A DNA stretch of 64,000 nt from an uncultured bacterium (GCA_964422145.1 CAYQZV010000001.1:193750-257749), one strand, 5' to 3'; positions 3,444 through 59,035 are shown, numbered from the stretch's first letter. Program-made: numbers and translations. Notes: a model not told the origin generated them from the letters alone.

Positions 3444-3450
3444 GTGAAAC
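3436..3450. promoter_or_regulatory. Copy 2 of TGTTTCACGTGAAAC. It spans the mnmE stop codon (TAG, 3450-3452) and the mnmG GTG start (3441-3443).
   Basis: Read directly from the sequence; identical to 1541-1555. Confidence 0.5.
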
Positions 3451-6427: not shown

Positions 6428-6429
6428 AA

Positions 6430-6696: not shown

Positions 6697-6830
6697 TAGG
6701 CAGAAAGAACCTTCCGTCCTTTTTTACGACGACGAGCTAGTACAGCACGGCCACCGACGGTAGACATTCTTTCTCTGAATCCGTGTTTATTCTTGCGCTT
6801 GCGATTACTTGGTTGAAATGTACGTTTCAT
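6696..6830 (-). CDS. rpmH: 50S ribosomal protein L34
   Basis: [47 protein letters not shown] at 6830 is preceded by AGGAGA (reverse complement of 6834-6840). The track ORF start at 6911 is an upstream extension. Confidence 0.93.
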
Positions 6831-6911
6831 TTTCTCTCCTATTTTAGCCGAGAAATTTACCACACTATGTAAATAGAAACAAAATAAAAACATTTGAGCA
6901 ACAAGACGCAA

Positions 6912-7075
6912 ATTTTAATATATATTAAATTCAAAAAAGGCAAACAGAGGCCAAGCAAACGATGTGATATATAAAAACCGTTTAATAAAAAAAAACTCAA
7001 AGAAACTCAAACAAAGTATTGTTTCACATTAGCAGAAACGAATAATTTTTATAAAAACAAACCTGTGGATAACCT
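6912..7075. promoter_or_regulatory. AT-rich rpmH/dnaA divergent control region. Candidate dnaA promoter and possible oriC unwinding region.
   Basis: The stretch is very AT-rich. AAACTCAAA is directly repeated at 6993-7001 and 7003-7011. A sigma70-like TTGTTT (7019-7024) - 16 nt - AATAAT (7041-7046) is present. An inverted repeat GTTTC-N9-GAAAC (7021-7039) sits in the promoter spacer. Gene strand polarity switches here. Confidence 0.4.
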
Positions 7076-7083
7076 GTGGATAA
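7064..7083 (+). promoter_or_regulatory. Two tandem perfect DnaA boxes, TGTGGATAA (7064-7072 and 7075-7083). The second contains the dnaA GTG start codon.
   Basis: Both are exact matches to the reverse complement of the consensus TTATCCACA. A 1-mismatch box, TGTGGACAA, lies at 7107-7115 inside dnaA. Confidence 0.75.
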
Positions 7084-28895: not shown

Positions 28896-28917
28896 AACAA
28901 ACATCCAGAAAAACATA

Positions 28918-29964
28918 GTGAGCACAACACCAATGGTTTCAATTATTATTCCGCACTGGAATGGAATTGAAATACTTTCTGAATGTATTGAATCGTTAAA
29001 ATTATCGACCTACCCAAATATTGAGATTGTGGTTGTTGATAATTTATCAACGGACGGCAGCCAAAACTGGATCAAAAACAACCATCCTGACATTATCTTA
29101 ATTGAGAATGACAAAAATTACGGGTATGCGGGTGGATGCAATCGCGGTGTGAATGCCTGCCTGGGAGAATATATTATTTTTTTAAACAATGATACTGTCC
29201 AAACACCCGGTTGGATTGAGTATCTTGTTAACATCATGGCAGCAGAACCACAGATTGCAGCGGCACAACCCACGATAAGAAATTATTATCAAAAAAAACG
29301 TTTTGATTATGCGGGCGGTGCAGGCGGTGCAATGGATATTTTTGGATTTCCGTTTGCAAAAGGACGGATATTTTCCACACAGGAAAATGATACAGCACAA
29401 TACGCAGCTCCGGATGATATATTTTGGGCATCCGGGACAGCAATGATAGTACGAAAAGATCGGTTTATTGAGGCGGGCGGGTTTGATGAAACCTTTTTCG
29501 CACATATGGAAGAAATTGATCTGTGTTGGCGATTCCACCTGATGGGATTTAACATTCGATCAGCCCCAAAATCAATTGTATATCATAAAAATGCCGCTAC
29601 CCTGCCGCAGTATACAGTTCAAAAATATTATTTAAATCATCGAAATTCATTATTAATGATTCTCTCGAATTATACCCTTCTGCTGACCCTTTATTTGCTT
29701 CCAATTCGCCTTGCGCTTGAAGGCGTTGCGTTTATCTATGCTGCCATGATGTTAGATTGGAGACACGCCGTAGCGATTATTAAAGCCGTCGCATGGGTTG
29801 CATTTCATCCATTGGTGATATTTAGAAAAAGACGAAAAACAAAAAAGGTGAGAAAAGTAAAAGACAGAAATATTTTAGAAAAATTATATTGCGGAAGTAT
29901 CGTCTTAGACTATTATTTGTTAAGGAAAAAGACTTATCGGGAAATTGTATCTAAACCCGCCTGA
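28918..29964 (+). CDS. Family 2 glycosyltransferase
   Basis: 348 aa. VSIIIPHWNG..., DNLSTDGS, FLNNDT (DXD-like). C-terminal TM segments. Confidence 0.85.
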   Translation: MSTTPMVSIIIPHWNGIEILSECIESLKLSTYPNIEIVVVDNLSTDGSQNWIKNNHPDIILIENDKNYGYAGGCNRGVNACLGEYIIFLNNDTVQTPGWIEYLVNIMAAEPQIAAAQPTIRNYYQKKRFDYAGGAGGAMDIFGFPFAKGRIFSTQENDTAQYAAPDDIFWASGTAMIVRKDRFIEAGGFDETFFAHMEEIDLCWRFHLMGFNIRSAPKSIVYHKNAATLPQYTVQKYYLNHRNSLLMILSNYTLLLTLYLLPIRLALEGVAFIYAAMMLDWRHAVAIIKAVAWVAFHPLVIFRKRRKTKKVRKVKDRNILEKLYCGSIVLDYYLLRKKTYREIVSKPA

Positions 29965-30824
29965 TAAATATCTTCATTGTCCGAATCGAAATAAATCAAA
30001 TCCAGCAGCATATCTTCCTGCCGAAGGACAGATAAAACCCGTGTTAATGTTTCAGCATGCGTTTTTAGAAAATAGAGAGTATTTTGTTCCCTGGGGGTGA
30101 CTTGGTTTACTTCTTCAAGTCCGGCGAGCATCAACTTAAATTCTTTTAGGGCTTCCTCAATATTTCCATTATTAAAAAGATCGAGAGCATAGTAAAGAGA
30201 AAAACGCGCTTTTCTCAACCCAAAGTTTGAACTGAGATCATTCACGAGCGTTACCCGGTCACTCCAGCCTCGTTGATAATCTGAAGAACTGCCCCGAAGC
30301 GCAATGTTTCTACAGACTTCATACACCCGAGTTCCGCCGTTGGGTTCATAGGTATCCATTTCTCCGGCAAGGATTAGATTTCCGTAATAAGCAAGAAAAC
30401 TCGGGAGTGGCTCAAAAATCACCGGATCAAAATGAATTGCGCTACCTGGATTGTAGAAAAACTGAACTCCGTTGGCAAAATATCTCTGATCACCTCCGTT
30501 TGAAAAAAGCGCTTGAGCTAAAAATGTTTTAACAGATCCTTTGGTTGATGTTCCTTCAAAAATGATTTGAACATGAAGCGGAATCATCAAATCTTTATAT
30601 TCGTCATCCCAAATGATATTTTGATAGAAATACCCAATTTCCTCTTTTAGCGAAAACACTTCCTGCCGTTCATTTCCCCTCAGAAGGCGATCGTCAATCG
30701 TCACATGAATCTCTCCAAATTGGGCGACAGCGGGCTGAAAGAGGAAAAGAATAATAAAACAAAACCGTAAAATGCTTTTTCTAAACAAAGAGAAGGCGCG
30801 AGGAGATATATCTTTTGAAGCCAC
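29934..30824 (-). CDS. DUF4835-like secreted protein (family linked to the T9SS in Bacteroidota annotation)
   Basis: 296 aa with a signal/TM segment. Overall pattern similarity to DUF4835 as I remember it (...QEVF.L...I..F....W....., ...LPSFLAYYGNLILAGEMD..., ...GW.DR..LVNDL...). This is memory-based, with no search. Confidence 0.45.
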   Translation of the reverse strand: MASKDISPRAFSLFRKSILRFCFIILFLFQPAVAQFGEIHVTIDDRLLRGNERQEVFSLKEEIGYFYQNIIWDDEYKDLMIPLHVQIIFEGTSTKGSVKTFLAQALFSNGGDQRYFANGVQFFYNPGSAIHFDPVIFEPLPSFLAYYGNLILAGEMDTYEPNGGTRVYEVCRNIALRGSSSDYQRGWSDRVTLVNDLSSNFGLRKARFSLYYALDLFNNGNIEEALKEFKLMLAGLEEVNQVTPREQNTLYFLKTHAETLTRVLSVLRQEDMLLDLIYFDSDNEDIYQAGLDTISR

Positions 30825-30832
30825 GGTGTAAT

Positions 30833-31324
30833 TTATGAATCTATTTGTTCAAATATCCCGGTTTTTTTATTTTTTTCAACATTATCATGCTCAAAACATC
30901 TTCCATTCATGACGACATAGACTCCGCCTGGAAGGGTTTGGGCAAACGCCAATGCACTTCCAAGATTAAATAAACCATCCGAACTCCCGAATTTATAGGG
31001 GATCATTGCTCCGGTAAGCACAATAGTTTTATCTATGTTTGCTTCAGCAATCACTCTGGCTGTAACGGTCATCGTATCCGTACCGTGGGTGATTACAAGA
31101 TGTTTTTCTTTCGCATTGCGGCAATTTTCTACAATGATCTGCCGTTCTTGCTCAGTCATTTCGAGGCTGTCTTCCATCATCAGCGTCAGAATAGAAACGT
31201 TCACCCGGTTTCTCCCCAGACTCAGCATTTCCCTGACATGAGATTCTTTAAAGAACAGCGCTCCGCTTATTTCATCATACTCTTTATCAAAGGTTCCGCC
31301 GGTAACTAATATTTTGACTTTCAT
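30833..31324 (-). CDS. Single-domain asparaginase-family protein (N-terminal asparaginase domain only)
   Basis: 163 aa. ILVTGGTFDKEY (TGGT catalytic-Thr motif) and ITHGTDTM. Confidence 0.7.
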   Translation of the reverse strand: MKVKILVTGGTFDKEYDEISGALFFKESHVREMLSLGRNRVNVSILTLMMEDSLEMTEQERQIIVENCRNAKEKHLVITHGTDTMTVTARVIAEANIDKTIVLTGAMIPYKFGSSDGLFNLGSALAFAQTLPGGVYVVMNGRCFEHDNVEKNKKTGIFEQIDS

Positions 31325-31665
31325 AACACAGTATCAATATTGCCTGTAGGTCGTCCAACGACAGCTTTATCCCCATTGATGACAATCGGGCGCTCGATCA
31401 GCTTCGGATAAGAAGCCATTGCTGAGATTAATGCAGAATCGTCATCCAACTTTTCTTTTAGAGACAGCGTTTTAAAATCTTGTTCTTTCAGTCGGATAAA
31501 ATCTTTGGGCTTGAGATTCAGTTTTTCTGAGAGAGTAAAAAGTTCTTCTTCGGATAAGGGGTTTTTAAGATACTCAACCAACTCAAATTCGAGGTTTTTA
31601 TCTTTTAAGTATTGCAATCCTTCACGGCTTTTACTGCAGCGCGGATTATGAAGTATTTGTATCAT
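31321..31665 (-). CDS. ArsC/Spx/YffB family (arsenate reductase-like thioredoxin fold) protein
   Basis: 114 aa. IQILHNPRCSKSREGLQYL... with an N-terminal Cys. ATGA overlap with the asparaginase-like gene. Confidence 0.75.
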   Translation of the reverse strand: MIQILHNPRCSKSREGLQYLKDKNLEFELVEYLKNPLSEEELFTLSEKLNLKPKDFIRLKEQDFKTLSLKEKLDDDSALISAMASYPKLIERPIVINGDKAVVGRPTGNIDTVL

Positions 31666-31734
31666 GATTACAGACCTGTCTCTATAGAAGTTTTAGATGA
31701 TAATTTCATATCAAATTTAAAACCGCAAAGAGAT

Positions 31735-32349
31735 TTAATCCTTGCTGAAACTTAATGTTCTCGTTATTTCTGTTGATGCTGGGAGACAAAGACTTTCAAT
31801 CGGTTCAGTCGAACTGTTGACAATAATTGACGTAATCAACAGCGTGTCAAGGGGCTCGTAAGAGGTGTAAGAGATATCGACCGTTTGCTGGTCTTCATTA
31901 AATGAAAAACCTCCTTGAATATCCAATTGGTCGTAATCCAAATTGAGTTGAAACTCACCTGTCTCTACATCAGCGCTCCAACTCCCGTCTGAAGCAACTG
32001 AACTAAAAACGACAATCGGGTTGCAATTGGTTCCAATATTTACAGGAAGGGTGCCCGCCAATGAAGCGGCATAGTCCTCTTCTAACACAACTTGGCCGCC
32101 AATACCATCATTAGTATCATACATAATAGATCCACTGAACACTAACTGTCCGGAGTTGATAGGAAGTATTGTTCCGCCTAGCGCCACAGAAACCGTATCG
32201 ATATTTGAATAGGCGGTTGTTTCCGTTAAGAGCTGTGTTAACGACCAAGTTCCGACAAGAGGATGTAAATCTTCTTCAGATGGGGGAATCTGACATCCTA
32301 TGTAAAAACATAAAACAACAAAGAAAACAGGGAAGAGTTTGGTTTTCAT
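31735..32349 (-). CDS. Hypothetical lipoprotein
   Basis: 204 aa. Signal peptide with lipobox (FYIGC). LVGTWSL lipocalin-like opening motif. Confidence 0.6.
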   Translation of the reverse strand: MKTKLFPVFFVVLCFYIGCQIPPSEEDLHPLVGTWSLTQLLTETTAYSNIDTVSVALGGTILPINSGQLVFSGSIMYDTNDGIGGQVVLEEDYAASLAGTLPVNIGTNCNPIVVFSSVASDGSWSADVETGEFQLNLDYDQLDIQGGFSFNEDQQTVDISYTSYEPLDTLLITSIIVNSSTEPIESLCLPASTEITRTLSFSKD

Positions 32350-32382
32350 AAGGTAAGTCCTTTCTTGAAGTTAAATTTAGTA

Positions 32383-32862
32383 TTAACGGTTATCAAATTG
32401 AATCGAACTCCAGTAAGAGAAAGTTGTTATCTCCTTCTTTTTAATAATAACTGGATGAAGTAAAACATTTCCTATTGCATCAAGCTCAAAGAAAGAAAGC
32501 GGAAGCGAATCCGGATTCGCTAAAAATGAGTCAAGTTTTGTAATGAAAAACGATGGCTCAACGGTTATCCCGACGCTTGCCAAATAATAAGCACCCCTGT
32601 CAAGTTGAATGAAATAATTAAGCAATGTGTCTCCACGCACAACCGGATTACCATAAGACACAAGATAATCCGCAGGGTGTTCAGGGTCGGAAGTTATATC
32701 GCTGTCAAGCGCAAGAACGGTTATTCCGTAAATAGAATCGGGCCAACCACCTTCGATATGTAAAGAGCCTTCAACTCCGGAGACAGATGTTAAACCATTA
32801 TCATAACAGCCGACAAACAACAAGAACAGAGCCCCGAGAACGATATGTGTTTTATTGCTCAT
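32383..32862 (-). CDS. Hypothetical lipoprotein
   Basis: Likely start at ATG 32862 (MSNKTHIVLGALFLLFVGC, lipobox). The track start 32895 adds 11 aa. Confidence 0.55.
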   Translation of the reverse strand: MSNKTHIVLGALFLLFVGCYDNGLTSVSGVEGSLHIEGGWPDSIYGITVLALDSDITSDPEHPADYLVSYGNPVVRGDTLLNYFIQLDRGAYYLASVGITVEPSFFITKLDSFLANPDSLPLSFFELDAIGNVLLHPVIIKKKEITTFSYWSSIQFDNR

Positions 32863-32920
32863 TCTGGAAGAATGTAACAGATACCGGCAAAACACATCAA
32901 GTAAAATAATAAGTTAAAAG

Positions 32921-32948
32921 AAAAGGGCTGCAGAAACAGCCCTTTTCA
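32921..32948 (-). terminator. Hairpin AAAAGGGCTG-CAGAAA-CAGCCCTTTT between the FadL-like gene and the downstream lipoprotein genes
   Basis: Read directly. A/T tracts flank it on both sides. Confidence 0.65.
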
Positions 32949-32974
32949 TCATTTTATTTTCTTTTACGAAGAAA

Positions 32975-34648
32975 TTAGAATGCGTAGCAGAGTCCAACAG
33001 CAAAGTCTAGCGCTGTTTTCATGTATGTTTCATCAGCTGTTATTGTAAGTTCGTCGGTCAGCACAACATCTTTTGTTTCCGTACCTTCTTCATAAAATGT
33101 GTTGGAAATGCCAAAAGACAGTCCCATTTTTGAGTTCAGTTTGTATTTTCCGCCAAACCCAACTGTGTTGGATACAAGGCTATTGCTCATATCAGAATTA
33201 TAGCCCTTCAGAACATTTCCATCTGCAAATAACCAACCGCCACTTAAGGTTAAAGCCTCTGAAAGCGCAAATTCGGCACCCAGACCATACTCAAAACCAT
33301 TTTCAGTATAGGCTTCTTTACCGCCCCAGTCTACATCTTCGTTGAAGTAGAGATTGTAACTTCCTTCGAGCCTTAGAGACGGAAGCACTTTGAAGGATAG
33401 CCCAGTTGCCAGCACGGCAGGCATATCGGAATATGTTTTACCTCCGTTTGGAAAAAGACCTGAGCCGTCAACTTCTGTATCGTTAACCAGCGTCATTTCA
33501 GCTTTTCCTTCGTAGCGGAGAGAAAGAGCTAAACGGTCATTTGGAGTATAATAGAGTCCGAGAACAGGAGCAAAAGCAGATCCGTTTTGAGTGGCATCAA
33601 CTTCTATATCAGCTGTTTTGGCGGCGAAACCGGCATTTGTGGCTGCATCATTTGCGTATTGTTCAGACAAGGCAGCGTATGTTGTAGCAACAGCAAAGAA
33701 AGCTGGCTGAGTATTATTTGGTGTATTGATAGAACCGTCAAACGGAATTCCCAACTGTTCGGCACCACCCGCAAGAGTAGCATATGTCGCTTCATCGATA
33801 ATTCCATACGTTAAAAGATCGTCAAAAGTTAAATTCCCAGCATTCTCATCGTCTACAAGCGGCTGGAGACTCTCTCCTGCTCCCTGAGCTGCTTCTGCTG
33901 CATATCCTAATTGCTCAGCACCAATGGATAAAACATTAGACAGGTTTGTGAAAAACCCGGTCGCGGATGCCAATGTTGTTCCATCGTAGTTTGCTAAAGA
34001 CGCATCAATGTCGCTCGCATCTGGGTTGATTTGAATGTCTTTTAAATGTCCAATGTAAGTGTTTTTTGCCTGCACATAACGTCCGCCGACAGACACGGAC
34101 AACAGATCACTTACTTTGTATGACACATTTGCTTGGACACCCAGATAAACAGATGAACCCTCAAATGCCATGTCTAAGCCATAAGCAGTTGTTGGGATCT
34201 CGCTAGCAGTGAGAAGTGTAGGAATTATTGCAACATCATATTCAAAAGAAGGTAAACCTTCTTCAAAGTTAGCGCTACCACCGCCACCGATTGGCATAAG
34301 CCCAAGAGAAAACGCAAAGTCTCCGCGTTTATCTACATAATAAACATTGGGGAAAACAGGAGCAAAGGTTGATCCAAGGTACTTTTTTTCCTCACCGAAA
34401 AGTGAAAAAGAAGACTTTACTTCACGATCTTGCATAATGGTTTGATTGCTGAAGTAAAAATATTTACCATCGTCCAGGCTGGTTAAACCAGCGGGATTGA
34501 AGTAAACAGCATCAAGTCCGGTAGAGGCATTGCGATTCATGGTGCGGATAAAATCAGCACTGTGATTTGTGTTGTGTACTAAGTTGCCCCCCAAGACTAG
34601 ACCGGTGGTCAAAATAAACAGGAGAACAACAGAAACAGTTTTTTTCAT
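32975..34648 (-). CDS. FadL/TodX (OMPP1) family outer-membrane transport protein with an enlarged Ala/Gly-rich extracellular insertion
   Basis: 557 aa with a signal peptide. N-terminal hatch motif AVYFNPAGLTSL. Alternating beta-strand pattern. C-terminal ...GLCYAF (terminal Phe). Confidence 0.7.
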   Translation of the reverse strand: MKKTVSVVLLFILTTGLVLGGNLVHNTNHSADFIRTMNRNASTGLDAVYFNPAGLTSLDDGKYFYFSNQTIMQDREVKSSFSLFGEEKKYLGSTFAPVFPNVYYVDKRGDFAFSLGLMPIGGGGSANFEEGLPSFEYDVAIIPTLLTASEIPTTAYGLDMAFEGSSVYLGVQANVSYKVSDLLSVSVGGRYVQAKNTYIGHLKDIQINPDASDIDASLANYDGTTLASATGFFTNLSNVLSIGAEQLGYAAEAAQGAGESLQPLVDDENAGNLTFDDLLTYGIIDEATYATLAGGAEQLGIPFDGSINTPNNTQPAFFAVATTYAALSEQYANDAATNAGFAAKTADIEVDATQNGSAFAPVLGLYYTPNDRLALSLRYEGKAEMTLVNDTEVDGSGLFPNGGKTYSDMPAVLATGLSFKVLPSLRLEGSYNLYFNEDVDWGGKEAYTENGFEYGLGAEFALSEALTLSGGWLFADGNVLKGYNSDMSNSLVSNTVGFGGKYKLNSKMGLSFGISNTFYEEGTETKDVVLTDELTITADETYMKTALDFAVGLCYAF

Positions 34649-34961
34649 TTATGATTCCTCATTTTTTTGTTTTGTGGACACCCTGTTGTCTTTCAAATGA
34701 AACGATGAAACCTTATCACCTGCTTCAGTTGTTAGGACATCCAAGCTGCAGAATCTACCGTCGATTATTTTTATAAGTCAAATGAAAAAAACAACGCATT
34801 ATTTCAGAGTTTTTTGTCGATTTTTCGGAATAAAATTAATAATTGTACTCTGAAAACTTTCGTGATAAATTCTGCGACATTATATCGAACCCCGCTTGGG
34901 TTTCAATATGATACGATCTTTTCGTAAAAGAAAATTCACAGAATAACCAAGGAGAACATAG

Positions 34962-37900
34962 ATGAGAAAACGAAATCTGTCGGTCTTTACCGTCTTGATG
35001 TTGTTTGGATACCTGTTTGCACAGGGCGTCACAACATCCGGGCTTAGTGGACTGGTTTCAAACCAAGAAAACAAGCCTTTGGTTGGTGCAAACGTTGTGG
35101 TGACCCACGAACCCAGCGGCACCCAATATGGAACCATGGTGCGTGACGGCGGTGTCTACACGATTTTGAATATGCGTGTTGGCGGACCGTACACAGTTGT
35201 TGTTTCATATATTGGGTATAAAACACAAGTAGAGGAAAACGTATTTTTGAGTCTCGGCTCTGCGACGAATGCAAACTTCCAGCTCGTTCAGGAAACGATC
35301 GAAATGGAGGGTGTTGACGTTACAGCAGTTCAAGATGACCTCATGAATGCAAATCGCACGGGTGCAGCTACGTTTGTCGGTGGAGATCTCTTAGCTCAAA
35401 TGCCAACCATTAAACGAAGCACGCGAGACTTAACTCGTCTCGACCCTCGAAGTGATGGGAACTTTAGTTTTGGCGGACGGAACTGGCTGTATAATAATAT
35501 TTCACTGGATGGTTCATACTTTAACAATCCATTTGGATTAGATGATCCTGCTCCGGGCGGACAAGCCAATGCCGAACCTGTGCCGTTTGATGCGGTAGAA
35601 CAGGTTCAGGTTTCTGTTGCTCCCTTTGACGTTCGTGAAGGTGGATTCACAGGTGCCGGTATTAACACTGTGACTAAAAGCGGAACAAACACATTCGGCG
35701 GATCTGTCTACAATTTCAGCCATAGCGAAGCACTTCAAGGTAACTCCGTTGCCGGCTCAGATGTGGTCGCAGACCCATCACTGAACTACAATCAGTCTGG
35801 GTTTACTTTAAGCGGACCGTTTATTTATGACAAAGCATTCTTTTTTGTAAACTATGAAAGAGAGCGCAGAACAGACCCGGGTTCAAACTTTGTTGCTGAT
35901 GAAGACGGTAATATTGAATTTGGAGAATCTCGAGTCAGTGCTGATGTAATGGATGCAATTCGTGACCGTATGATGGATGTCTATGGATATGATACCGGTG
36001 ATTATCAAGGCTACAACCATGAAACAAACAATGACAAATTACTGGTCAAGCTGGACTTCAACTTGAGCGCAAATCACAATGCTGTATTTAGATACAATAT
36101 GTTGGATGCTTCAAGAGACCTTGGTCCGCACGGATTTGTACTAAGTTACAACGGGACAGGTCGCGGACCGAACAGCTCAAGCCTTCCGTTTGAAAACTCA
36201 GGGTATACGATTAATAACAAACTACATTCCTTTGCAGGAGAATTAAACAGCACATTCGGAGGGAATATCTCAAACCGGTTCTTCTTCAGTTACAATATGT
36301 TCCGTGATTGGAGAACCCCAAAAAGCGTTGACTTCCCGACAGTTGAAATTGGTGAAAATGGTTTGACATACACAACGATCGGTCACGAACCGTTCTCGAT
36401 CCATAATATTTTAGATCAGGACGTTCTGCAGATCACGAATAACACATCATACTTTATGGGAAAACATACACTGACAGCCGGGGTGAACTATGAACAGTTT
36501 AAGTTCTTTAACTCCTTCAATATTTTCCGCCATGGATTATTTATGCTGCCAGGAGATTTAGACTTGCTATACCCCGGAGCTGGATATTTGGATTTCTTAG
36601 GTGCCACAACATATTCATCTTTAGATAATTTCTTTATCCGTACGGACAACTCACCCGAAAACACTGATTTTGTTGATTTTAACAGCATGGTTGGTTCGGG
36701 ACCATTTAAAGGCGAACTTATTGATGTTGCTCAGCTTGCCTTTTATGCGCAGGACGAGTTTATGGTCAATGAAAAGCTGAATGTTACAGCCGGGCTTCGT
36801 GTAGACATTCCGATCTATAATACAGAACCGGTTGCAAACCCATTTTCAACTGACTCGCTAAGCTTATTAGATGAAAATGACAACCCCGAAATTGTAGACC
36901 AAGCAAAGCTCCCGGATGCAAAACCACTATATTCACCACGAGTTGGTTTTAACTATGATGTGAAGGGTGACCGCTCCATGCAGCTTCGCGGTGGAACCGG
37001 TATCTTTACCGGCAGACTTCCGTTTGTATGGATTGGTAACGTGATTTCGAACCCAGGAAATAATCCGAATATTCCTGGAGACGGAAGCAACCCAGATCAC
37101 GAAACAGACAGCGGCGAAGGCAGAGAACAAGGCGAAGACGTTGCTTCTGTATTACAGCAATCCTTTGACTTAAATGCAATGGTAGACGATTTTGAATGGC
37201 CGCAAGTTTGGACAACCAACTTAGCCTTAGACCTTGAATTGCCAAGCCAAATGCTGGGTACGTTTGAAATGGTTTATGGAAAAGATTTGAATGCCATTTA
37301 TATGCGGAATGCTGATCTAGTAGTTCCAGTCGATTCTCTTGCAGATGGCCGTCCTTACTTTGGTGGGGTTGGTGCAAACGAGCTGAACTCATTCTACCCG
37401 GGATCGGGTGAAGGAGCATACGTCATTGACAATACGGACGAAGGCTATAATCTGACATTAACCGGACAACTAAGAAAAGTTCACAATTGGGGATTAGTAT
37501 CAAGCATAGCTTATACCTACACACAATCCATGAATAATCTTAAGTCTACTGAAATTGCTTCAGTGCTATTCCAAAGTCAGCCGGTTCAGGGCGACCCGAA
37601 CAAGCCGACTCTTGCACCGTCTGAATTTGGTATTCGTCATCGCTTTATCGGAACAGCTAATTACACACACGACTGGTCTGCAACACAAAGCACAAACGTT
37701 GGGCTCTTCTATGAATTAGCTGAAGGAAATCAGTATGTTTACTCCGGCGGAAACCGTTACTCACACACCTATGCAGGCGATGTGAATGGCGATGGATTCT
37801 CAAACGATCTGATCTACATTCCTGAAAATGCAGACGATATCGTTTTAGCCGATACAACACAATGGGATGCGCTAAATGCATTCATTGAACAGGATCCTTA

Positions 37901-38234
37901 CTTAAGCGAAAACCGCGGCAAGATTGCCGAACGGCATGGACTGGTTAACCCATGGTTCAGCAACATAGATTTGAAAGTCCTTCATGACTATAGCACAGCC
38001 TATGGAAAATTCCAGTTCAGTATGGACATTTTGAATCTTGCTAACTTGTTGAATGACGAGTGGGGCGTACGTAAAGTTGCTAATCCAATGGCGCTTGCTC
38101 CGCTTGGTTTAACAGGCTGGGATGAAAACGGTGAGCCGATTCTTTCATTCAACGATGTCGAAGAAACCTTTATCGATGATCCGGGTCTCTTCTCACGCTG
38201 GCGTATGCAGTTTGGAATCCGTTACATCTTCTAA
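34962..38234 (+). CDS. TonB-dependent receptor, Oar-like (N-terminal carboxypeptidase-regulatory-like domain)
   Basis: 1090 aa. AAGGAG SD and a signal peptide. CarboxypepD_reg-like region GLVSNQENKPLVGANVVVTHEPSGTQYGT...YTVVVSYIGYKT. Plug region followed by a long barrel. C-terminal ...FGIRYIF. Confidence 0.85.
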   Translation: MRKRNLSVFTVLMLFGYLFAQGVTTSGLSGLVSNQENKPLVGANVVVTHEPSGTQYGTMVRDGGVYTILNMRVGGPYTVVVSYIGYKTQVEENVFLSLGSATNANFQLVQETIEMEGVDVTAVQDDLMNANRTGAATFVGGDLLAQMPTIKRSTRDLTRLDPRSDGNFSFGGRNWLYNNISLDGSYFNNPFGLDDPAPGGQANAEPVPFDAVEQVQVSVAPFDVREGGFTGAGINTVTKSGTNTFGGSVYNFSHSEALQGNSVAGSDVVADPSLNYNQSGFTLSGPFIYDKAFFFVNYERERRTDPGSNFVADEDGNIEFGESRVSADVMDAIRDRMMDVYGYDTGDYQGYNHETNNDKLLVKLDFNLSANHNAVFRYNMLDASRDLGPHGFVLSYNGTGRGPNSSSLPFENSGYTINNKLHSFAGELNSTFGGNISNRFFFSYNMFRDWRTPKSVDFPTVEIGENGLTYTTIGHEPFSIHNILDQDVLQITNNTSYFMGKHTLTAGVNYEQFKFFNSFNIFRHGLFMLPGDLDLLYPGAGYLDFLGATTYSSLDNFFIRTDNSPENTDFVDFNSMVGSGPFKGELIDVAQLAFYAQDEFMVNEKLNVTAGLRVDIPIYNTEPVANPFSTDSLSLLDENDNPEIVDQAKLPDAKPLYSPRVGFNYDVKGDRSMQLRGGTGIFTGRLPFVWIGNVISNPGNNPNIPGDGSNPDHETDSGEGREQGEDVASVLQQSFDLNAMVDDFEWPQVWTTNLALDLELPSQMLGTFEMVYGKDLNAIYMRNADLVVPVDSLADGRPYFGGVGANELNSFYPGSGEGAYVIDNTDEGYNLTLTGQLRKVHNWGLVSSIAYTYTQSMNNLKSTEIASVLFQSQPVQGDPNKPTLAPSEFGIRHRFIGTANYTHDWSATQSTNVGLFYELAEGNQYVYSGGNRYSHTYAGDVNGDGFSNDLIYIPENADDIVLADTTQWDALNAFIEQDPYLSENRGKIAERHGLVNPWFSNIDLKVLHDYSTAYGKFQFSMDILNLANLLNDEWGVRKVANPMALAPLGLTGWDENGEPILSFNDVEETFIDDPGLFSRWRMQFGIRYIF

Positions 38235-38266
38235 GATGTGATTTGATTTTCAAATAAAATGAAAAT

Positions 38267-38294
38267 AGAAAAGCCGGCGATTGCCGGCTTTTCT
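38267..38294. terminator. Bidirectional terminator (AGAAAAGCCGGC-GATT-GCCGGCTTTTCT) between the TonB-dependent receptor and nupC
   Basis: Read directly. Confidence 0.8.
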
Positions 38295-38317
38295 ATTATG
38301 GAAAATGAAGAAACTTT

Positions 38318-39535
38318 TTAGATTAATAATCCTGCCAGCGTTGCGGTCAGCCATGAAGCCAAAGCGCCGCCGATCATAGCTTTTAATCCCAACTTTGAAA
38401 GGTGTTTTCGTCGATTGGGAGCAATTCCGCCGATTCCGCCCAATTGAATACCAATCGATGCGAAGTTTGCAAATCCGCAAAGAGCATAACTTGCAATAAT
38501 CGCGGTGCGATCAGAAATCGCACCGGCCGAACGCAGCTCTACTAAATCACCATAGGCGATCAGTTCAGTTAAAACAAGTTTTTCTCCCATAAGCGTACCC
38601 ATTGTTCCAGCTTCTGCCCAGGGGATACCCATTGTCCATGCGAGCGGCATGAATACCCAGCCGAATATTTCCTGGAGGGAAAAACCGAACAAACCAAGAA
38701 GATAGTTTATCATTGCGATAAGCGCAACAAAGGCAACAAGCATAGCTCCCACATTTGCAGCAAGCTTCAACCCGTCAGAAGCCCCTCGCGCAGTGGCTTC
38801 CATCATGTTATCATCTAATTTTTCAACATGAATGTTAACACTTCCTGAGGTTTCAGAGATTTCTGTTTCAGGGTAAATGATTTTTGCAATGACAAGCGCA
38901 GCGGGAGCGCTCATAATCGACGCAGCCATAAGATGTCCCGCGATATTCGGAACATCCTGAAGCATTTTTACGTAAATAGCCAGAACACCGCCAGCCACTG
39001 TGGCAAAACCGCCGACCATAACGGCCATTAACTCAGACTGTGTCATTTTTTCGACAAAAGGACGAACCATTAACGGAGCTTCTGTTTGACCGACAAAGAT
39101 GTTTGCAGACACGCTCAATGTTTCGCTACCAGACGTTTTAAGCGTTTTCTGCATGGCTTTTGCAATCCATTTGATGATAAACTGCATGACTCCAAGGTGG
39201 TACATCACCGCCATCAAAGACGAAAAGAAAATGATGGTCGGCAGAACGCGGAATGCGAAGTTCATCAACGGTCCCTCAACCACACCCGCCCCAAAGGACT
39301 TGAATAAAAAATCACTTCCTGCGTCTGAAAAACTCAGCAGTTTCTTTACAACCGTATCCACACCGGCAAAGAACGGTTGCCCAATCGGTGTTTTTAAAAT
39401 GAATAATGCAAATACAAGCTGGAGAGCTAATCCAAAAATAATGAGTCGTTTGTTAATAGCAGATCGATTGTTAGACATTGCGAATGCAATTCCTAACAAA
39501 ACAAAAATTCCGAGAACACCTGTAAATTCTGACAT
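38318..39535 (-). CDS. nupC: NupC/NupG (CNT) family nucleoside transporter
   Basis: 405 aa. The N-terminus and overall sequence are typical of concentrative nucleoside transporters (...FILKTPIGQPFF..., ...NIFVGQTEAPL..., ...GFANFASIGIQLGG...). Confidence 0.9.
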   Translation of the reverse strand: MSEFTGVLGIFVLLGIAFAMSNNRSAINKRLIIFGLALQLVFALFILKTPIGQPFFAGVDTVVKKLLSFSDAGSDFLFKSFGAGVVEGPLMNFAFRVLPTIIFFSSLMAVMYHLGVMQFIIKWIAKAMQKTLKTSGSETLSVSANIFVGQTEAPLMVRPFVEKMTQSELMAVMVGGFATVAGGVLAIYVKMLQDVPNIAGHLMAASIMSAPAALVIAKIIYPETEISETSGSVNIHVEKLDDNMMEATARGASDGLKLAANVGAMLVAFVALIAMINYLLGLFGFSLQEIFGWVFMPLAWTMGIPWAEAGTMGTLMGEKLVLTELIAYGDLVELRSAGAISDRTAIIASYALCGFANFASIGIQLGGIGGIAPNRRKHLSKLGLKAMIGGALASWLTATLAGLLI

Positions 39536-39695
39536 GAATCAAACCTCCGTTAATTAAAGAAACTATACAACAATGGCTGTATAACTGGGCAGTAAAGTTA
39601 AGAGAAATATTGCGATGAGACACAAGGTATTTCACATGAGAAACTATTGGTAGTCTGCAATCAGTTAATGTAATTTTTATTAAACAAATTATCCC

Positions 39696-40727
39696 ATGAA
39701 AATAAACGGCAAAGATTATCGAACCGTCTGGATGGACGGACAAACCATAAAAACCATTGAACAAAACAAACTTCCTGAATCGTTTGAGATTGTTCAAATC
39801 AACGACATTGATGCAGTGATTTCTGCAATTCAAACGATGGTGATTCGCGGCGCACCTGCAATCGGAGCAATGGGAGCCTACGGTTTGGCACAGGCAATCT
39901 CCTTATCTGAAAACCCCGGACAAGACGAGATGAATGCTTTCCGAAATAAACTGATTACCGCAAGACCGACCGCCTATGATTTAGAACACGGATTAAACTG
40001 GGTGTTGGCTGAGGCAAATAAAGGCAAAACACCGAAAGAGGTGAAGACAAAAGCACTCGACGCTGCAAAGCAATATGCCAATATTTCTGCGGCGGCCTGT
40101 AAAAAAATCGGAGAGTTTGGCAATAAGCTGATACATGATAACGCTAAAATATTAACCCATTGTAATGCAGGCGCATTGGCTACAGTTGATTATGGAACAG
40201 CTCTGTCACCTATTCGTGCGGCACATGACGAAGGGAAATCCGTATTTGTCTTCGTGGATGAAACCCGCCCTCGGCTCCAAGGTGCAAAACTCACGGCCTT
40301 TGAGTTGTACCAAGAAGGAATTGAACACGCAGTGATCGCAGACAATGCCGCCGGTTACTTTATGGCAAACGGAGAAATTGATTTAGTGATCACGGGAACG
40401 GACCGCGTTGCAGCCAATGGTGATATTGCCAATAAAATCGGAACCTATGAAAAAGCAGTTGTGGCAAAAGAACACAATATTCCAGTGTATATTGCAGCAC
40501 CCACTTCTACCATTGATTTTACTTGTCCGACAGGTAAGGACATCCCGATTGAAGAAAGAGACCCGAATGAAGTTCTTTGTGTAAATGATATCCGGGTTAC
40601 CTCAAAAGGAAGCTCTGCGCGAAACCCGGCTTTTGATATTACCCCGGCTAAATTCATTGCAGGTATCATAACCGAATTTGGAATTATTAAACCGAATGAA
40701 TTGGATAAACTGGACAAAAATGGCTGA
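39696..40727 (+). CDS. mtnA: S-methyl-5-thioribose-1-phosphate isomerase (MtnA / eIF-2B-like family)
   Basis: 343 aa. ...MVIRGAPAIGA..., THCNAGALAT, VDETRPRLQG, GTDRVAANGDIANKIGTY. Confidence 0.9.
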   Translation: MKINGKDYRTVWMDGQTIKTIEQNKLPESFEIVQINDIDAVISAIQTMVIRGAPAIGAMGAYGLAQAISLSENPGQDEMNAFRNKLITARPTAYDLEHGLNWVLAEANKGKTPKEVKTKALDAAKQYANISAAACKKIGEFGNKLIHDNAKILTHCNAGALATVDYGTALSPIRAAHDEGKSVFVFVDETRPRLQGAKLTAFELYQEGIEHAVIADNAAGYFMANGEIDLVITGTDRVAANGDIANKIGTYEKAVVAKEHNIPVYIAAPTSTIDFTCPTGKDIPIEERDPNEVLCVNDIRVTSKGSSARNPAFDITPAKFIAGIITEFGIIKPNELDKLDKNG

Positions 40728-54610: not shown

Positions 54611-54630
54611 CCTGTGATCAAAATCACAGG
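54611..54630 (+). terminator. Hairpin CCTGTGAT-CAAA-ATCACAGG after ybjQ
   Basis: Read directly. The downstream T-tract is weak or delayed. Confidence 0.5.
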
Positions 54631-54761
54631 GTGAAAAAAACTGTTTTATATATATCTCTTGTAATATTATATTTCTAACAGATATAACGATTATAACAGT
54701 AATAATAGTTATAATAGAATCTGGGATTCGCGTGTATATCAAAAAATCGAATGGAGCCACA

Positions 54762-56003
54762 ATGAAGAGAATTACCATATTCATATTAACATTAGCCGTG
54801 TTCATCTCTGCACAATATCCCGTCAATCTTGATGTTACTCTCACTCCGTATGTAACATATTATATTTCCTCGGTTGATTTAAATACAGGAAGCTCAAGTG
54901 TTCCGATTTTTCAAGCAAGACTTTCAAACAATACTTCAGACAGCGTGTCGGTGATCATGGATTTTGAAGTCATTATCGACTCAGACTTTTTGGGTTTGGA
55001 CAGTGAAACCATCATCAAAGCGAAAACGAACCCCTTCTTTTTTGAAAACGATATCTTTATTTCAAATATGGACATGACAGTTGACACAAGAGGCATTTAC
55101 GATGTTGAAGGAAATCAAGTAGAGATTTCAGTCGTCATAGAAGAAAAAATCGACATGGATATGTCAACAGCTGAAGACTTATTTAACGCTGTTGTGCAAT
55201 CCGGGAAACTGCCTGATGGGAATTACAGCTATCGGGTAAATTTATATAACGGTGAGGATGAAACGGAAGTTTGGGGCGAGTTTGAAGAAACACTCAGCGT
55301 TACCTCTCCAACCTATTTACAGCTGATCTCTCCCGGCGGACAGCTTGCGGATACGACATCGAATGAAATATTCACGAATTATCCCGTGCTTCAGTGGGAA
55401 TCAGATCCATGCAACTACATTGACCCCGAAACCGGAGATTACGGTTGTCAATATTTTCTGCGGGTAGCGGAGTTTAATCCAGAAATTCATTCTTCAGTTG
55501 ATGAAGCCATTGAATCCACAACCCGATTACCGCTGAACCAAGCTGAGGATTGGGAATTGGTCGGAACCGGCGTGACATCATTTCAGTATCCTGCAATCGA
55601 CGTTGGAGAATTAGAGCAGGGAAAAGTATACGTCTGGCAATGTTTAAAACGGATAAAAACCACGGATGGTTTCGACGAAGTATTTAGTGACATTATGGTG
55701 TTTAAAGTCAAGGATTTTACCGAAACCGCAGAGGAAGAAGCGGAACCGGCATCCAGCGGTGAAGATGCACCGGCGTCAGCTGCACTCCAGTCCATCATTG
55801 GAGGGGATCAATTTGAAGCCCTGTTTGGTGAAGGAGGTTCAGCCTATGGATATTTACCAACGGGAAACATTCTGCATAACAATACCGTTGTCGACCTTTC
55901 GTTTGTCCAATCCTTGTTGTCAGGCGGGATAGAAGAAACCGATTCGGAGGGAAACACCTCCTACCGCCCGATCTCCATCATCTCAGTTGAGGTGTCCGAA
56001 TGA
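54762..56003 (+). CDS. Hypothetical secreted protein (413 aa) with an acidic C-terminal region. First gene of a three-gene envelope operon.
   Basis: ATG at 54762 with GGAG 5 nt upstream. Signal peptide MKRITIFILTLAVFISA. I recognise no family. The stop overlaps the next gene's start (ATGA). Confidence 0.65.
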   Translation: MKRITIFILTLAVFISAQYPVNLDVTLTPYVTYYISSVDLNTGSSSVPIFQARLSNNTSDSVSVIMDFEVIIDSDFLGLDSETIIKAKTNPFFFENDIFISNMDMTVDTRGIYDVEGNQVEISVVIEEKIDMDMSTAEDLFNAVVQSGKLPDGNYSYRVNLYNGEDETEVWGEFEETLSVTSPTYLQLISPGGQLADTTSNEIFTNYPVLQWESDPCNYIDPETGDYGCQYFLRVAEFNPEIHSSVDEAIESTTRLPLNQAEDWELVGTGVTSFQYPAIDVGELEQGKVYVWQCLKRIKTTDGFDEVFSDIMVFKVKDFTETAEEEAEPASSGEDAPASAALQSIIGGDQFEALFGEGGSAYGYLPTGNILHNNTVVDLSFVQSLLSGGIEETDSEGNTSYRPISIISVEVSE

Positions 56004-56671
56004 AACAAATAATCATATCAGTCATGTTTCTCACCATGTTGTTCGGTGAGAGAAAAATTGCCATTGCTGTTAAATCAAAAGGCACCGTAAATCATGTATT
56101 TGCAGGTCAGGAAACAACAGCGCCATTGAAACTCGGAGCCGGATTGGCCAATGAAGACAGAATTCAAACAGACGAAGACGGATTTGCGGTGGTGATGTAT
56201 TTGGATGACAAAACCACAATGAAAATTCGTGAAGACTCTGATTTTCTGGTTGGAGGACAGAGATCGGAAAGCGGGATTAATAAACGTGTTTTTCTCAATT
56301 ATGGACAATTGAAAGTCTCGGTCACAAAACAAAAAGGAAAAGAATTTATTATTGCGACAACAACATCAGTTGCCTCAGTAAAAGGAACGGAAATCATTGT
56401 TGTTTCAGACCCGTTGTTGGGGGATTTGTTCTCCACATTAACCGGATCAATTGTTGTTACAAATAATATCACCGGAGATTCAACGGCTGTCAATGTAGGA
56501 GAGACGGCAAGTTCTACTCCAGATGGCGAACTAGATCTTACTGAAACGAATGAGGAATTGCTTCCTGAATTTGAAACAGAAGAAGAAACCGGCGAAGAAA
56601 TTAATGAATTAAAGTTCGAAATCGAAGATGCAAACGGAAACATAAAGGAAGTAATTATTCGGTATCAATAA
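56000..56671 (+). CDS. FecR-domain protein with an acidic C-terminal tail
   Basis: 223 aa with an N-terminal hydrophobic segment. FecR-like beta-rich core (...KLGAGLANEDRIQTDEDGFAVVMYLDDKTTMKIREDSDFLV...TTTSVASVKGTEIIVV...). Tail rich in E/T. Confidence 0.6.
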   Translation: MKQIIISVMFLTMLFGERKIAIAVKSKGTVNHVFAGQETTAPLKLGAGLANEDRIQTDEDGFAVVMYLDDKTTMKIREDSDFLVGGQRSESGINKRVFLNYGQLKVSVTKQKGKEFIIATTTSVASVKGTEIIVVSDPLLGDLFSTLTGSIVVTNNITGDSTAVNVGETASSTPDGELDLTETNEELLPEFETEEETGEEINELKFEIEDANGNIKEVIIRYQ

Positions 56672-56701
56672 TGTTTTTCTAAAACAAGAAACAGGCTCAT
56701 T

Positions 56702-59035
56702 ATGAAAAAAAGAATAATTAAAATACTGTTTATGATTGGAATAACATCACAATGTTTTGCTGATGATATTCTAATTTTTAGTCCGATGCCGGATGAAACG
56801 GTATTCGGAACTGATGTGTTGATCGCCGCATCGTTTTATTCTTTGGGTGGTGTATCAACCGATCGAATCCAAGTGTTTTTAAATGATATTGAGATCACCA
56901 ATCAGGCGGAAGTAGAACCGGAAATGGTCAGCTATGCGCCTTCAATACTAAACTCAGGTAAACATATCGTATTGATCAGAATTTTTCGGGACAACATGGA
57001 CCCGCTTGAACAGACCTGGGGTTTTACGGTTACCGGAGAGAAAAAATGGACAGATGAAATTGATTGGGGTGGAAAAATAACATCTGATTACCGATTGGAA
57101 CAAGCGGGAGAAGAAGAGCTGTCCCTTGGAAATGTCGGTGTATACTTTAACGGTTCAGCCTATGAATGGTTTAAACTAAAAACCAGCATCAAACTTGCAT
57201 CAGATGAAGACCCGCTTCTTCAGCCTAGAAACCGCTTTACATTGCAGGCATCTTTAGGTAAATATTTTGATCTAGGTTTTGGTGATACAAATCCAAGAAT
57301 GACGCGATTCACGTTAGACGGGAAACGGGTCCGCGGGTTTAATGCCCATCTGAAACTAAAGTATTTAAAAGTTCATTTTATCACCGGAGAACTCGTCCGT
57401 GCGATCGATGGAAACTTAAATGAAAACGAACCGAACTCGGCTTATGTTATTTTTCACCAAGGGTTTCAGGACTCACTTGCCACATTTAGGTTGAACCGGC
57501 AAGGATACACGTTCAAACAAAAGATTTTAGCCGGCCGACTCAGCTTTGGCCGAGGAAAGAATTTTCAGTTGGGCTTGAATTTTTTGAAGGTAAAAGACGA
57601 TATAAATAGTGTTAATCCTGTTATAGAAAAGGCCAACATTGTTGTTGACAATGAAGACTGGGCATTGGCATCGGGTGTCTATACATTTGATGAAATTACT
57701 AGATTAAACGGAGCCCCGACAGGAAACGGATATTATTATCAAATACTTCAAGACGAAGAAAGCGATTGGGGTGGAGCAACTCCGAAAGATAATCTTGTTA
57801 TCAGTTCCGATATCGGAATGTATTTTGACAATAAAAAGATACTATTAGAAGGTGAAGCCGCTTTAAGCTTATACAATAAAGATATTTGGAACGGCGCGAT
57901 GTCCATTGCAGAGATGGACACACTCATGGATGACAGTCTCGACAATTCGCTGGCGGGATCATTTGACCTTTCAACACTCCCTTTTGACCCACAGGATATT
58001 GAAGATATTTTTGTGATTGGTTTTAATATGGTTCCGCTAGCACCGATCGACATTTCAATTTTTACCGATTCATCTAAAACAAGCATAACAGACGCAATCT
58101 TAAATATGCCCTCTTTATCTTATAGGGGAAGAGCAAAGCTAAATTATTTTGGTCATTATTTCACGGCAGAATATTCCCGGATCGGCCCTGAATACAGGTC
58201 ATTGGCAAACCCTTATTTATTGGCGGGATTTAATCAGGTAACAATTAGTGACAGAATCCAATTATTTAAAAACAGGGTTCTTTTAACCTTAGAATATCGA
58301 CATCAAAACGATGATGTTCTCACCGCAGAAACAAATGTAACGACCGAAAATCGAATCCTGACAAACATGACTTTGATTCCAGGGCCGGGATTACCAACCT
58401 TCACAGTTGGGTTTAGAAACACGAATCGAGAAAATGGAATTACTGATATCGAAGAGTTTATCAATCAGACGACAGATAGCACGACGTACAAGGATAACCG
58501 TGAAAACACAAATACAATAAGCTTTACGTCATCAGCGACTTATGTATTCAATCTTTTTGACTCACGGCATACGGTATTTGGCACATTTGTCTCGTATAAT
58601 AAAGCCGATCAGATAACCGATGATCGTGAACTGGACCCGGCATATGTTGATCCTAAACTTGTTTCAAATGTGTTTAATTTTGCTTTGACATCGCGATATG
58701 GTTTTATCCCGTTAAAAACAACACTGAGTTTTACAATGAACACCAGTGAGTTCAGTATTGCCCCCGGAGAAGTTGCCGACCAGCAATTCATGTCCGGAAA
58801 ACTGAGCGTTGAGTATGGATTCATTGATAATAAACTCGCCGTGTTGGGAGGACTTGATTTTATGACCGGAGAGGGGATCCAAGATGTTTCAAAATTTGGG
58901 ATGAACGGCGGCGTTCGGTTTAAACTGATTGACGGACTGATGGCACAAGCCACACTCAATGTCAGACAAAAATCTGTAGCCGGAGAGTCTTCATCTGAAG
59001 TGATAGGCGTTGCGACGCTTTCGTATCTTTTCTAG
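56702..59035 (+). CDS. Hypothetical outer-membrane beta-barrel protein (777 aa) with an N-terminal Ig-like domain
   Basis: Signal peptide MKKRIIKILFMIGITSQCFA. Long run of alternating amphipathic strands. C-terminal ...ATLSYLF (aromatic terminus). Confidence 0.6.
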   Translation: MKKRIIKILFMIGITSQCFADDILIFSPMPDETVFGTDVLIAASFYSLGGVSTDRIQVFLNDIEITNQAEVEPEMVSYAPSILNSGKHIVLIRIFRDNMDPLEQTWGFTVTGEKKWTDEIDWGGKITSDYRLEQAGEEELSLGNVGVYFNGSAYEWFKLKTSIKLASDEDPLLQPRNRFTLQASLGKYFDLGFGDTNPRMTRFTLDGKRVRGFNAHLKLKYLKVHFITGELVRAIDGNLNENEPNSAYVIFHQGFQDSLATFRLNRQGYTFKQKILAGRLSFGRGKNFQLGLNFLKVKDDINSVNPVIEKANIVVDNEDWALASGVYTFDEITRLNGAPTGNGYYYQILQDEESDWGGATPKDNLVISSDIGMYFDNKKILLEGEAALSLYNKDIWNGAMSIAEMDTLMDDSLDNSLAGSFDLSTLPFDPQDIEDIFVIGFNMVPLAPIDISIFTDSSKTSITDAILNMPSLSYRGRAKLNYFGHYFTAEYSRIGPEYRSLANPYLLAGFNQVTISDRIQLFKNRVLLTLEYRHQNDDVLTAETNVTTENRILTNMTLIPGPGLPTFTVGFRNTNRENGITDIEEFINQTTDSTTYKDNRENTNTISFTSSATYVFNLFDSRHTVFGTFVSYNKADQITDDRELDPAYVDPKLVSNVFNFALTSRYGFIPLKTTLSFTMNTSEFSIAPGEVADQQFMSGKLSVEYGFIDNKLAVLGGLDFMTGEGIQDVSKFGMNGGVRFKLIDGLMAQATLNVRQKSVAGESSSEVIGVATLSYLF

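Follow-up and report, generated by a model that had tools for sequence, protein, structure and literature searches.

A conserved gene trio for a secreted beta-sandwich protein, a FecR-domain protein and a predicted outer-membrane barrel, linked in half of its loci to a CHASE2 nucleotide cyclase

The DNA analysed here is a stretch of 64,000 nucleotides from an uncultured bacterium (GCA_964422145.1 CAYQZV010000001.1:193750-257749), referred to below, at its full length, as the window. Positions 54,762 to 59,035 hold three genes of the plus strand, here named g1, g2 and g3, which are flanked by two hairpins. Together they make up a real, widely conserved and uncharacterised envelope module. The features of the operon are as follows, in window coordinates.

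54611..54630, plus strand: hairpin 3′ of a ybjQ-like gene (8-bp stem, z -3.3, poor T tract); 5′ border of the operon and a weak terminator
54631..54761, plus strand: AT-rich intergenic stretch with promoter-like hexamers (consensus matches only) and a GGAG ribosome-binding site at 54753-54756
54762..56003, plus strand: g1, secreted protein of 413 amino acids (aa), counted from the ATG
56000..56671, plus strand: g2, secreted FecR-domain protein of 223 aa
56702..59035, plus strand: g3, predicted outer-membrane protein of 777 aa
59058..59091, both strands: bidirectional intrinsic terminator (dG -22.6/-20.8 kcal/mol, z -8.3/-9.7)

Direct reading of the sequence shows g1 and g2 to overlap by ATGA (56000-56003) and g3 to follow g2 after a spacer of 30 nt, which confirms the three open reading frames (ORFs) and the spacing reported in the initial annotation of this DNA. 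That annotation had also placed the trio between two terminators. The statement holds for the 3′ side, where a strong terminator serves both the operon and the convergent PFOR gene; the 5′ hairpin is a poor terminator at best. A GTG codon at 54732 provides an alternative start for g1. The ATG at 54762 is preferred because of the GGAG that precedes it. Homologues are plentiful, the 90% collection yielding 93 matches to g3 and 368 to g1. The three genes are real and under selection, and they are translationally coupled and passed on as a unit.

A census with hidden Markov models (HMMs) yielded 86 non-redundant loci, the window included, from Marinimicrobia/Fidelibacterota, KSB1, Ignavibacteria and unnamed lineages. 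A set of 80 relatives' loci was gathered with a narrow barrel alignment, which biases the sample towards Marinimicrobia; Calditrichota are known here from barrel matches only. The order g1, FecR gene, barrel gene is constant in every locus examined, and no trio lacks a gene unless its contig is truncated. Synteny in other genomes, on which the initial annotation had made its proposal depend, thus extends over at least three named phyla. The trios of the window and of KSB1 are homologous throughout (E-values of 7e-25 for g1, 5e-25 for g2 and 1e-76 for g3).

Directly 3′ of the barrel gene, at -4 to +499 nt, 43 of the 86 loci carry a gene combining a CHASE2 domain with a class III nucleotide cyclase. 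Pfam searches confirmed both CHASE2 and Guanylate_cyc in loci of KSB1, Ignavibacteria and Marinimicrobia. No cyclase is found in the other 43 loci, among them the window, and at least 3 kb of downstream sequence is present in 33 of these. The 4-nt overlap of g1 and g2 is found in 30 of 35 cyclase-less loci. In 25 of 36 cyclase-linked loci, from both KSB1 and Marinimicrobia, the next gene after the cyclase (gap of 13-1812 nt) encodes PorX, identified as the NCBIfam equivalog NF052313 (scores of 695-726 bits, cutoff 300; L001:8890-10452 and L090:12529-14094). We take PorX to be a response regulator of type IX secretion systems (T9SS) with a PglZ phosphodiesterase domain. Its adjacency suggests that the envelope module is connected with both cyclic-nucleotide signalling and type IX secretion.

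Two candidate neighbours of the cyclase-less loci were discarded. Weak "cyclase" matches near two of them come from unrelated soluble proteins made of a 2Fe-2S ferredoxin (Fer2), a class III cyclase and a Rieske domain, encoded a few kb from the trios (L037:11856-13196 and L032:9484-10821); these may be redox-sensing cyclases in their own right. An apparent conserved neighbour proved to be a heterogeneous set of T9SS cargo and housekeeping genes, and these loci have no other neighbour in common.

The g2 protein begins with a signal peptide (aa 1-16), followed by a FecR domain (aa 53-134), an acidic linker (aa 182-203) and a conserved C-terminal hairpin (aa 204-223), which in homologues ends in ...IIIx[FY]Q. 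The FecR-type core proposed initially is borne out by a match to Pfam FecR PF04773 (E 4.7e-9, 37 bits, gathering cutoff 24). Two other parts of that description require revision. Homologues carry canonical cleavage sites of the A-x-A type, which makes a cleavable signal peptide more likely than the supposed N-terminal anchor, and the supposed poly-acidic tail is a linker ahead of the conserved C-terminal element. Across homologues of all three proteins, signal peptides are of the signal peptidase I (SPI) type and almost never contain a lipobox. The g2 protein has no Cys, no anti-sigma domain and no transmembrane helix, the signal peptide alone preceding the FecR domain. The nearest NCBIfam models, all below threshold, are those of Leptospira LipL45, Lsa33 and Lsa19 (E 4e-7 to 9e-3; 29 versus 420 bits). 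A single-sequence search of the PDB with g2 gave no match, and a profile search gave weak ones only, to the N-terminal part of 5ix9 "Antifreeze protein" (E 0.002) and to MtxA 4z29 (E 1.2). The region concerned is residues 21-91 (window 56060-56272), and related FecR proteins match Pfam MtxA_N/DUF7354.

A further feature of g2 lies towards the end of its FecR domain:

56384..56389, plus strand: Gly129-Thr130 codons of g2, within the invariant motif SVASVKGT

The Gly-Thr pair is kept in all 77 homologues compared. In a profile alignment it falls on ALG181-T182EF of Escherichia coli FecR, where Gly181-Thr182 is the experimentally mapped site of self-cleavage, common also to FoxR (PMC12036975). 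This position suggests that g2 may likewise cleave itself between Gly129 and Thr130. The conserved residues of g2 are identical whether or not a cyclase gene is present at the locus; therefore, the biochemical role of the protein appears unchanged in the window's copy.

The g3 protein was modelled with AlphaFold2 from an alignment of 66 sequences (predicted local distance difference test, pLDDT, 89; predicted template modelling score, pTM, 0.74). Behind a signal peptide (aa 1-20), the model has the following parts.

56771..57034, plus strand: N-terminal immunoglobulin (Ig)-like domain of g3, aa 24-111 (AlphaFold2)
57059..59032, plus strand: beta-barrel of g3, aa 120-777, about 28 strands by DSSP count on the AlphaFold2 model, with the beta-signal ...ATLSYLF
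57602..58114, plus strand: two long inserts between strands of g3, aa 301-362 and 393-471 (AlphaFold2 model)

These parts agree with the early description of a 777-aa barrel with a signal peptide, an N-terminal Ig-like domain and a ...SYLF end. The C-terminal F is found in 81 of 85 homologues. With a signal peptide, a predicted barrel and a C-terminal aromatic beta-signal, g3 is, as modelled, an outer-membrane protein of the type assembled by the beta-barrel assembly machinery (BAM). By the general topology of such proteins, its Ig-like domain would be periplasmic. The two inserts would be either extracellular loops or a plug of the lumen; the best-conserved motifs of the family (PKDNLV, AFSLLNxDIW, PFDP and MPSLAY) lie in or around them. 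Most barrel homologues carry an additional N-terminal Ig-like segment that the g3 of the window lacks. This segment matches 18-20 tandem repeats in the giant proteins P0297 (3051 aa) and P0307 (4022 aa).

No Pfam family matches g3 at E<=1, including Plug, TonB_dep_Rec, STN and MtrB_PioB, nor does any NCBIfam model, and none of ten sampled family members has a Pfam match above threshold. Sequence searches of the PDB returned CDC25 only, which was dismissed as noise. A g3 profile run against 1.84 billion cluster representatives retrieved 964 of them at E<=1e-30, a number that rises to 3410 at the looser threshold of E<=1e-10. Named homologues belong to Marinimicrobia/Fidelibacterota, Calditrichota, KSB1, Ignavibacteria and "Hatepunaea"; most matches bear no taxon name. 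When the model was compared with the PDB by Foldseek, only generic large barrels were found. The best match is MtrB, a 26-strand sheath (6r2q_B; E 9.5e-11, template modelling score, TM, 0.44/0.52, identity 8%), followed by SlpA, TonB-dependent transporters and ushers (TM 0.17-0.34).

A FecR protein encoded beside such a barrel calls to mind classical Fec-type signalling, in which a TonB-dependent transducer, a FecR anti-sigma protein and a sigma factor of the extracytoplasmic function (ECF) group work together. The FecR match above the Pfam threshold, the conserved Gly-Thr pair and a barrel with an N-terminal periplasmic domain would all suit such a system. However, g2 is a protein of only 223 aa that has a signal peptide but lacks both an anti-sigma domain and a transmembrane helix, Pfam detects neither Plug nor TonB_dep_Rec nor STN in g3, and no ECF sigma factor occurs among the operon neighbours and larger window ORFs scanned. 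These findings already refute the classical scheme, to which we give next to no chance. Within 10 kb of the operon and among the larger window ORFs scanned, we found neither an ECF sigma factor nor an STN-bearing TonB transducer, in agreement with the initial remark that both are missing here.

The Ig-like character of g1 (see below) and the appearance of FimD and PapC among the weaker structural matches of g3 (TM 0.24-0.34) could be taken to indicate a chaperone-usher-like or adhesin assembly system. This is highly improbable: no part of the trio matches an Usher or PapD-like chaperone family, g1 and g2 match no pilin or chaperone family, and g3 resembles ushers no better than it resembles any other large barrel. 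Somewhat less remote, and still unlikely, is the idea that the trio takes up a large solute or polymer independently of TonB, through a channel that g1 and g2 would assist as binding partners in the periplasm or at the surface. The size of the barrel and its conserved long loops, which could gate a pore, are compatible with it, as is the presence of genes for T9SS-secreted peptidases beside the trios of some relatives. Yet no transporter, binding-protein or catabolic gene is conserved beside the trio in the census loci, g3 has neither Plug nor TonB box, and a FecR domain and a CHASE2 cyclase are parts of signalling rather than transport.

The g1 protein carries a signal peptide (aa 1-17) and two beta-sandwiches (aa ~20-180 and ~186-316). 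An acidic, disordered linker follows (aa 319-336; pLDDT below 50 at 323-334), and the protein ends in a small conserved alpha/beta domain (aa 337-413). The last residues, ...SVEVSE, correspond in homologues to a conserved ...SVEVxE strand. The AlphaFold2 model, computed from an alignment of database matches only, has a pLDDT of 80 and a pTM of 0.52, and its matches in the PDB are generic tandem folds of the Ig/fibronectin type III (FN3) kind. No Pfam or NCBIfam model matches g1, which together with the two sandwiches supports the earlier view of a signal-peptide protein of no known family with Ig-like segments. Of the acidic C-terminal region described for it, the acidic stretch is real; it is a linker ahead of a conserved folded domain and not a tail. 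The Por_Secre_tail sorting domain of the T9SS was not found by Pfam, and the C-terminal domain, being small and of alpha/beta type, is no beta-sandwich sorting domain. The protein has three Cys residues, yet no CXXCH.

The relationship between cyclase-linked and cyclase-less loci was examined in neighbour-joining trees of g1, g2 and g3 (50 bootstrap replicates each). The window falls in a "short" cyclase-less subclade, recovered in 50 of 50 replicates for g3 and for g1 and in 36 of 50 for g2. A second robust cyclase-less subclade, "long", has FecR proteins of 525-700 aa. The barrel tree unites "short" and "long" (39/50) and places them, with only moderate support, inside the cyclase-linked diversity of Marinimicrobia, a placement left undecided by the trees of g1 and g2. 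At least ten metagenome-assembled genomes carry both versions, for example JBHHUC01 (L015 and L083) and SCKK01 (L072 and L054). The simplest reading is that the four-gene cluster was duplicated within Marinimicrobia and that the cyclase gene was then lost once or twice. The copy in the window is thus a cyclase-less paralog derived from a four- or five-gene cluster and no free-standing novelty. A second, independent cyclase-less lineage is represented by a trio outside the window's clade, on a contig of 5.4 Mb (L094:3908-8697; ERZ21862645:ctg38566l), where the barrel gene is followed by an alpha/beta hydrolase gene and no CHASE2 cyclase.

The trio also changes place. A block of genes for a TMEM260-like O-mannosyltransferase, a GT2 protein, a CarboxypepD_reg outer-membrane barrel, a nucleoside transporter and an IF-2B protein (window 25947-40727) is common to the window and locus L007. 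The trio of L007 lies within this block; that of the window is found about 17 kb further along. These different positions in a common synteny block indicate that the trio moves as a unit.

Taken together, these data lead us to propose a trans-envelope signalling system to which the trio supplies the input arm, in the outer membrane and the periplasm; in the case of the window, the output would be provided in trans or would have been lost. We give this reading a probability of about one half. The g3 barrel, alone or together with g1, would detect a cue at the surface or in the envelope. Similarly to FecR, which relays from FecA, the g2 protein would pass the cue across the periplasm to the CHASE2 sensor domain, in a step possibly dependent on self-cleavage at Gly129-Thr130. 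In complete clusters the cyclase, often encoded beside the T9SS regulator PorX, would then alter the level of cyclic AMP (cAMP) or cyclic GMP (cGMP). The copy in the window would most likely provide a cyclase encoded elsewhere in the genome with a second input, or else would have kept the envelope complex after losing the signalling output. The trio had first been suggested to form an undescribed outer-membrane-associated complex for secretion, anchoring or sensing. That suggestion is supported in part: the module is undescribed and includes a predicted outer-membrane barrel, its proteins may form a complex, and among the three functions sensing is favoured because the CHASE2 cyclase gene directly follows the barrel gene in half of the loci; the copy that prompted the proposal turns out to be a cyclase-less derivative.

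The most serious competitor is an autonomous surface complex of the plug-and-barrel kind, similar to MtrCAB or LptDE: part of g1 or g2 would sit inside the barrel, the Ig-like protein would be exposed on the cell surface for adhesion or display, and in the four-gene clusters the cyclase would merely monitor or regulate the assembly. It would account for MtrB, itself a sheath around a partner, being the best structural match of g3, and for the need of a barrel of about 28 strands to be plugged. The conserved C-terminal beta-strands of g1 and g2 could dock in such a barrel, g1 resembles in its fold RbmA, SiiE and other adhesin and matrix proteins with tandem FN3/Ig domains, and two lineages have kept the trio without a cyclase. 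However, the likeness to MtrB amounts to 8% identity and a TM of 0.44-0.52 and does not extend to haem motifs, and no role in secretion is known for the FecR domain. In addition, the trio is tightly linked to a CHASE2 cyclase in 43 of the 86 loci, spread over at least three named phyla, and this speaks for signalling as the ancestral role. On balance we consider the plug-and-barrel complex doubtful.

Several observations nevertheless weigh against an input arm for signalling. No CHASE2 or cyclase gene was detected in the 64-kb window, either by tblastn with two CHASE2 cyclases or with a five-cyclase HMM on the window ORFs, and no other signalling gene was found among the operon neighbours and larger window ORFs scanned. 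Monophyly of the cyclase-less loci is seen in the barrel tree only and finds no support in the trees of g1 and g2. The cyclase-less locus L094, lying outside the window's clade, implies that the trio may work without a cyclase. Moreover, the closest structural analogue of g3 is the protein-sheathing MtrB, which fits display or transport equally well. Finally, SMc02177, a FecR-domain protein of Sinorhizobium meliloti, is a downstream target that signal perception does not require (PMC5498481).

An extended form of the signalling proposal is put forward more tentatively. The trio might be the missing input of CHASE2 sensors, with the barrel and a self-cleaving FecR shuttle turning a cell-surface event into the synthesis of cAMP or cGMP and with a connection to PorX in many bacteria of the Fibrobacteres-Chlorobi-Bacteroidetes (FCB) group. 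Marinimicrobia would have duplicated the input arm, so that one cyclase would be served by two surface inputs.

Elsewhere in the window, mnmG, mnmE and yidC (minus strand) and dnaA (plus strand) form a replication-origin gene set at 1566-8437, and the chromosomal origin probably lies near 6.4-7.1 kb of the window. Two genes for giant secreted proteins of 2024 and 1375 aa follow, at 8847-14921 and 15186-19313. The 1375-aa protein combines the T9SS sorting domain Por_Secre_tail with FlgD_ig and a lamin-tail domain, and the organism therefore has T9SS cargo. The 2024-aa protein has a FlgD_ig match at its C-terminus only. Partly beyond the 3′ end of the window, gene calling splits a MatE efflux gene into two adjacent ORFs of 305 and 161 aa (L005:16908-18328), which may reflect a frameshift or a pseudogene.

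To our knowledge, CHASE2 is a widespread bacterial sensor domain without a known ligand. The pairing of FecR and CHASE2 genes has been noted before, and we know of no mechanism proposed for it. The present module adds a defined outer-membrane partner to this pairing and offers a model in which a signal would run from the barrel to the FecR-domain protein, on to the CHASE2 sensor and into a cyclic nucleotide. The groups concerned, Marinimicrobia/SAR406, KSB1, Calditrichota and Ignavibacteriota, are, as far as we know, almost unstudied with respect to signalling. That PorX is so often encoded next to the cyclase hints at an unexplored connection of cyclic-nucleotide signalling with type IX secretion. 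With 964 clusters at 50% identity (E<=1e-30), the barrel family is a large one for which Pfam has no model, and g1 is likewise without a family; a description of the two would give an annotation to thousands of envelope proteins now called "hypothetical". Signalling across the envelope by way of a FecR domain is already known. The barrel, g1 and their clustering with a CHASE2 cyclase appear to be new, in that the literature searched contains no description of this barrel family, of g1 or of the four-gene cluster.

Among characterised systems, E. coli FecA-FecR-FecI is the one that the module would most resemble in its working. There too, a periplasmic PF04773 protein is encoded together with an outer-membrane barrel that bears an additional N-terminal domain in the periplasm, and Gly129-Thr130 of g2 aligns with the FecR residues Gly181-Thr182 (PMC12036975). 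Unlike it, the module lacks an ECF sigma factor, and g2 contains neither a cytoplasmic anti-sigma domain nor a transmembrane helix. The g3 barrel, furthermore, has no Plug, TonB box or STN and about 28 strands instead of 22, and its TM to TonB-dependent transporters is 0.17-0.33. A third, Ig-like protein is present in the module, and the output of homologous clusters is a CHASE2 nucleotide cyclase. MtrCAB, to which MtrB (6r2q_B) belongs, shares with the trio a three-part make-up of a large barrel and two soluble partners; it differs in sequence (8% identity, TM 0.44-0.52), in the CXXCH haem motifs that g1 and g2 lack, and in the MtrB_PioB family, which g3 does not match in Pfam. Searches of Pfam, NCBIfam, the PDB and Foldseek matched no trio protein to a characterised usher, Bam/Lpt or TonB system. 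For Usher and PapD-like families in particular, Pfam and NCBIfam gave no match in the trio, and the TM of g3 to FimD and PapC is 0.24-0.34. A known adhesin/usher or lipopolysaccharide/Bam set, which the initial annotation had named as the kind of match that would speak against its proposal, is thus not what lies here. Leptospira LipL45, Lsa33 and Lsa19 resemble g2 as stand-alone envelope FecR-domain proteins without sigma factors. Unlike them, g2 has no lipobox, and it scores far under the family cutoffs; no barrel or g1 partner is described for the Leptospira lipoproteins.

Gene clusters that pair FecR with CHASE2 are also known. The initial annotation stated that FecR domains normally partner with ECF sigma factors and TonB transducers; CHASE2 sensors make up a second class of partners, already noted by others (PMC5192318, PMC9239204). 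In the BiofilmReg system of Burkholderia, genes for a LysM-FecR protein and a CHASE2 histidine kinase adjoin (PMC5192318), and Campylobacterota have a cluster of CHASE2 adenylate cyclase, FecR, TPR and phosphodiesterase genes (PMC9239204). As in these, a secreted FecR protein is encoded beside an inner-membrane CHASE2 sensor in the 43 cyclase-linked loci homologous to the trio; the window differs in having no CHASE2 gene. The FCB-group clusters have no LysM, TPR protein or histidine kinase, unlike those of Burkholderia and Campylobacterota, and add the barrel of about 28 strands and g1, neither of which figures in those two papers. A parallel for the barrel itself comes from S. meliloti, where, as summarised in PMC13001267, the outer-membrane barrel NsrA is needed for the CHASE2 cyclases CyaD1, CyaD2 and CyaK to perceive an external (plant) signal. 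The two systems differ in operon structure; what they would share, going by description, is an outer-membrane barrel that feeds CHASE2 cyclases.

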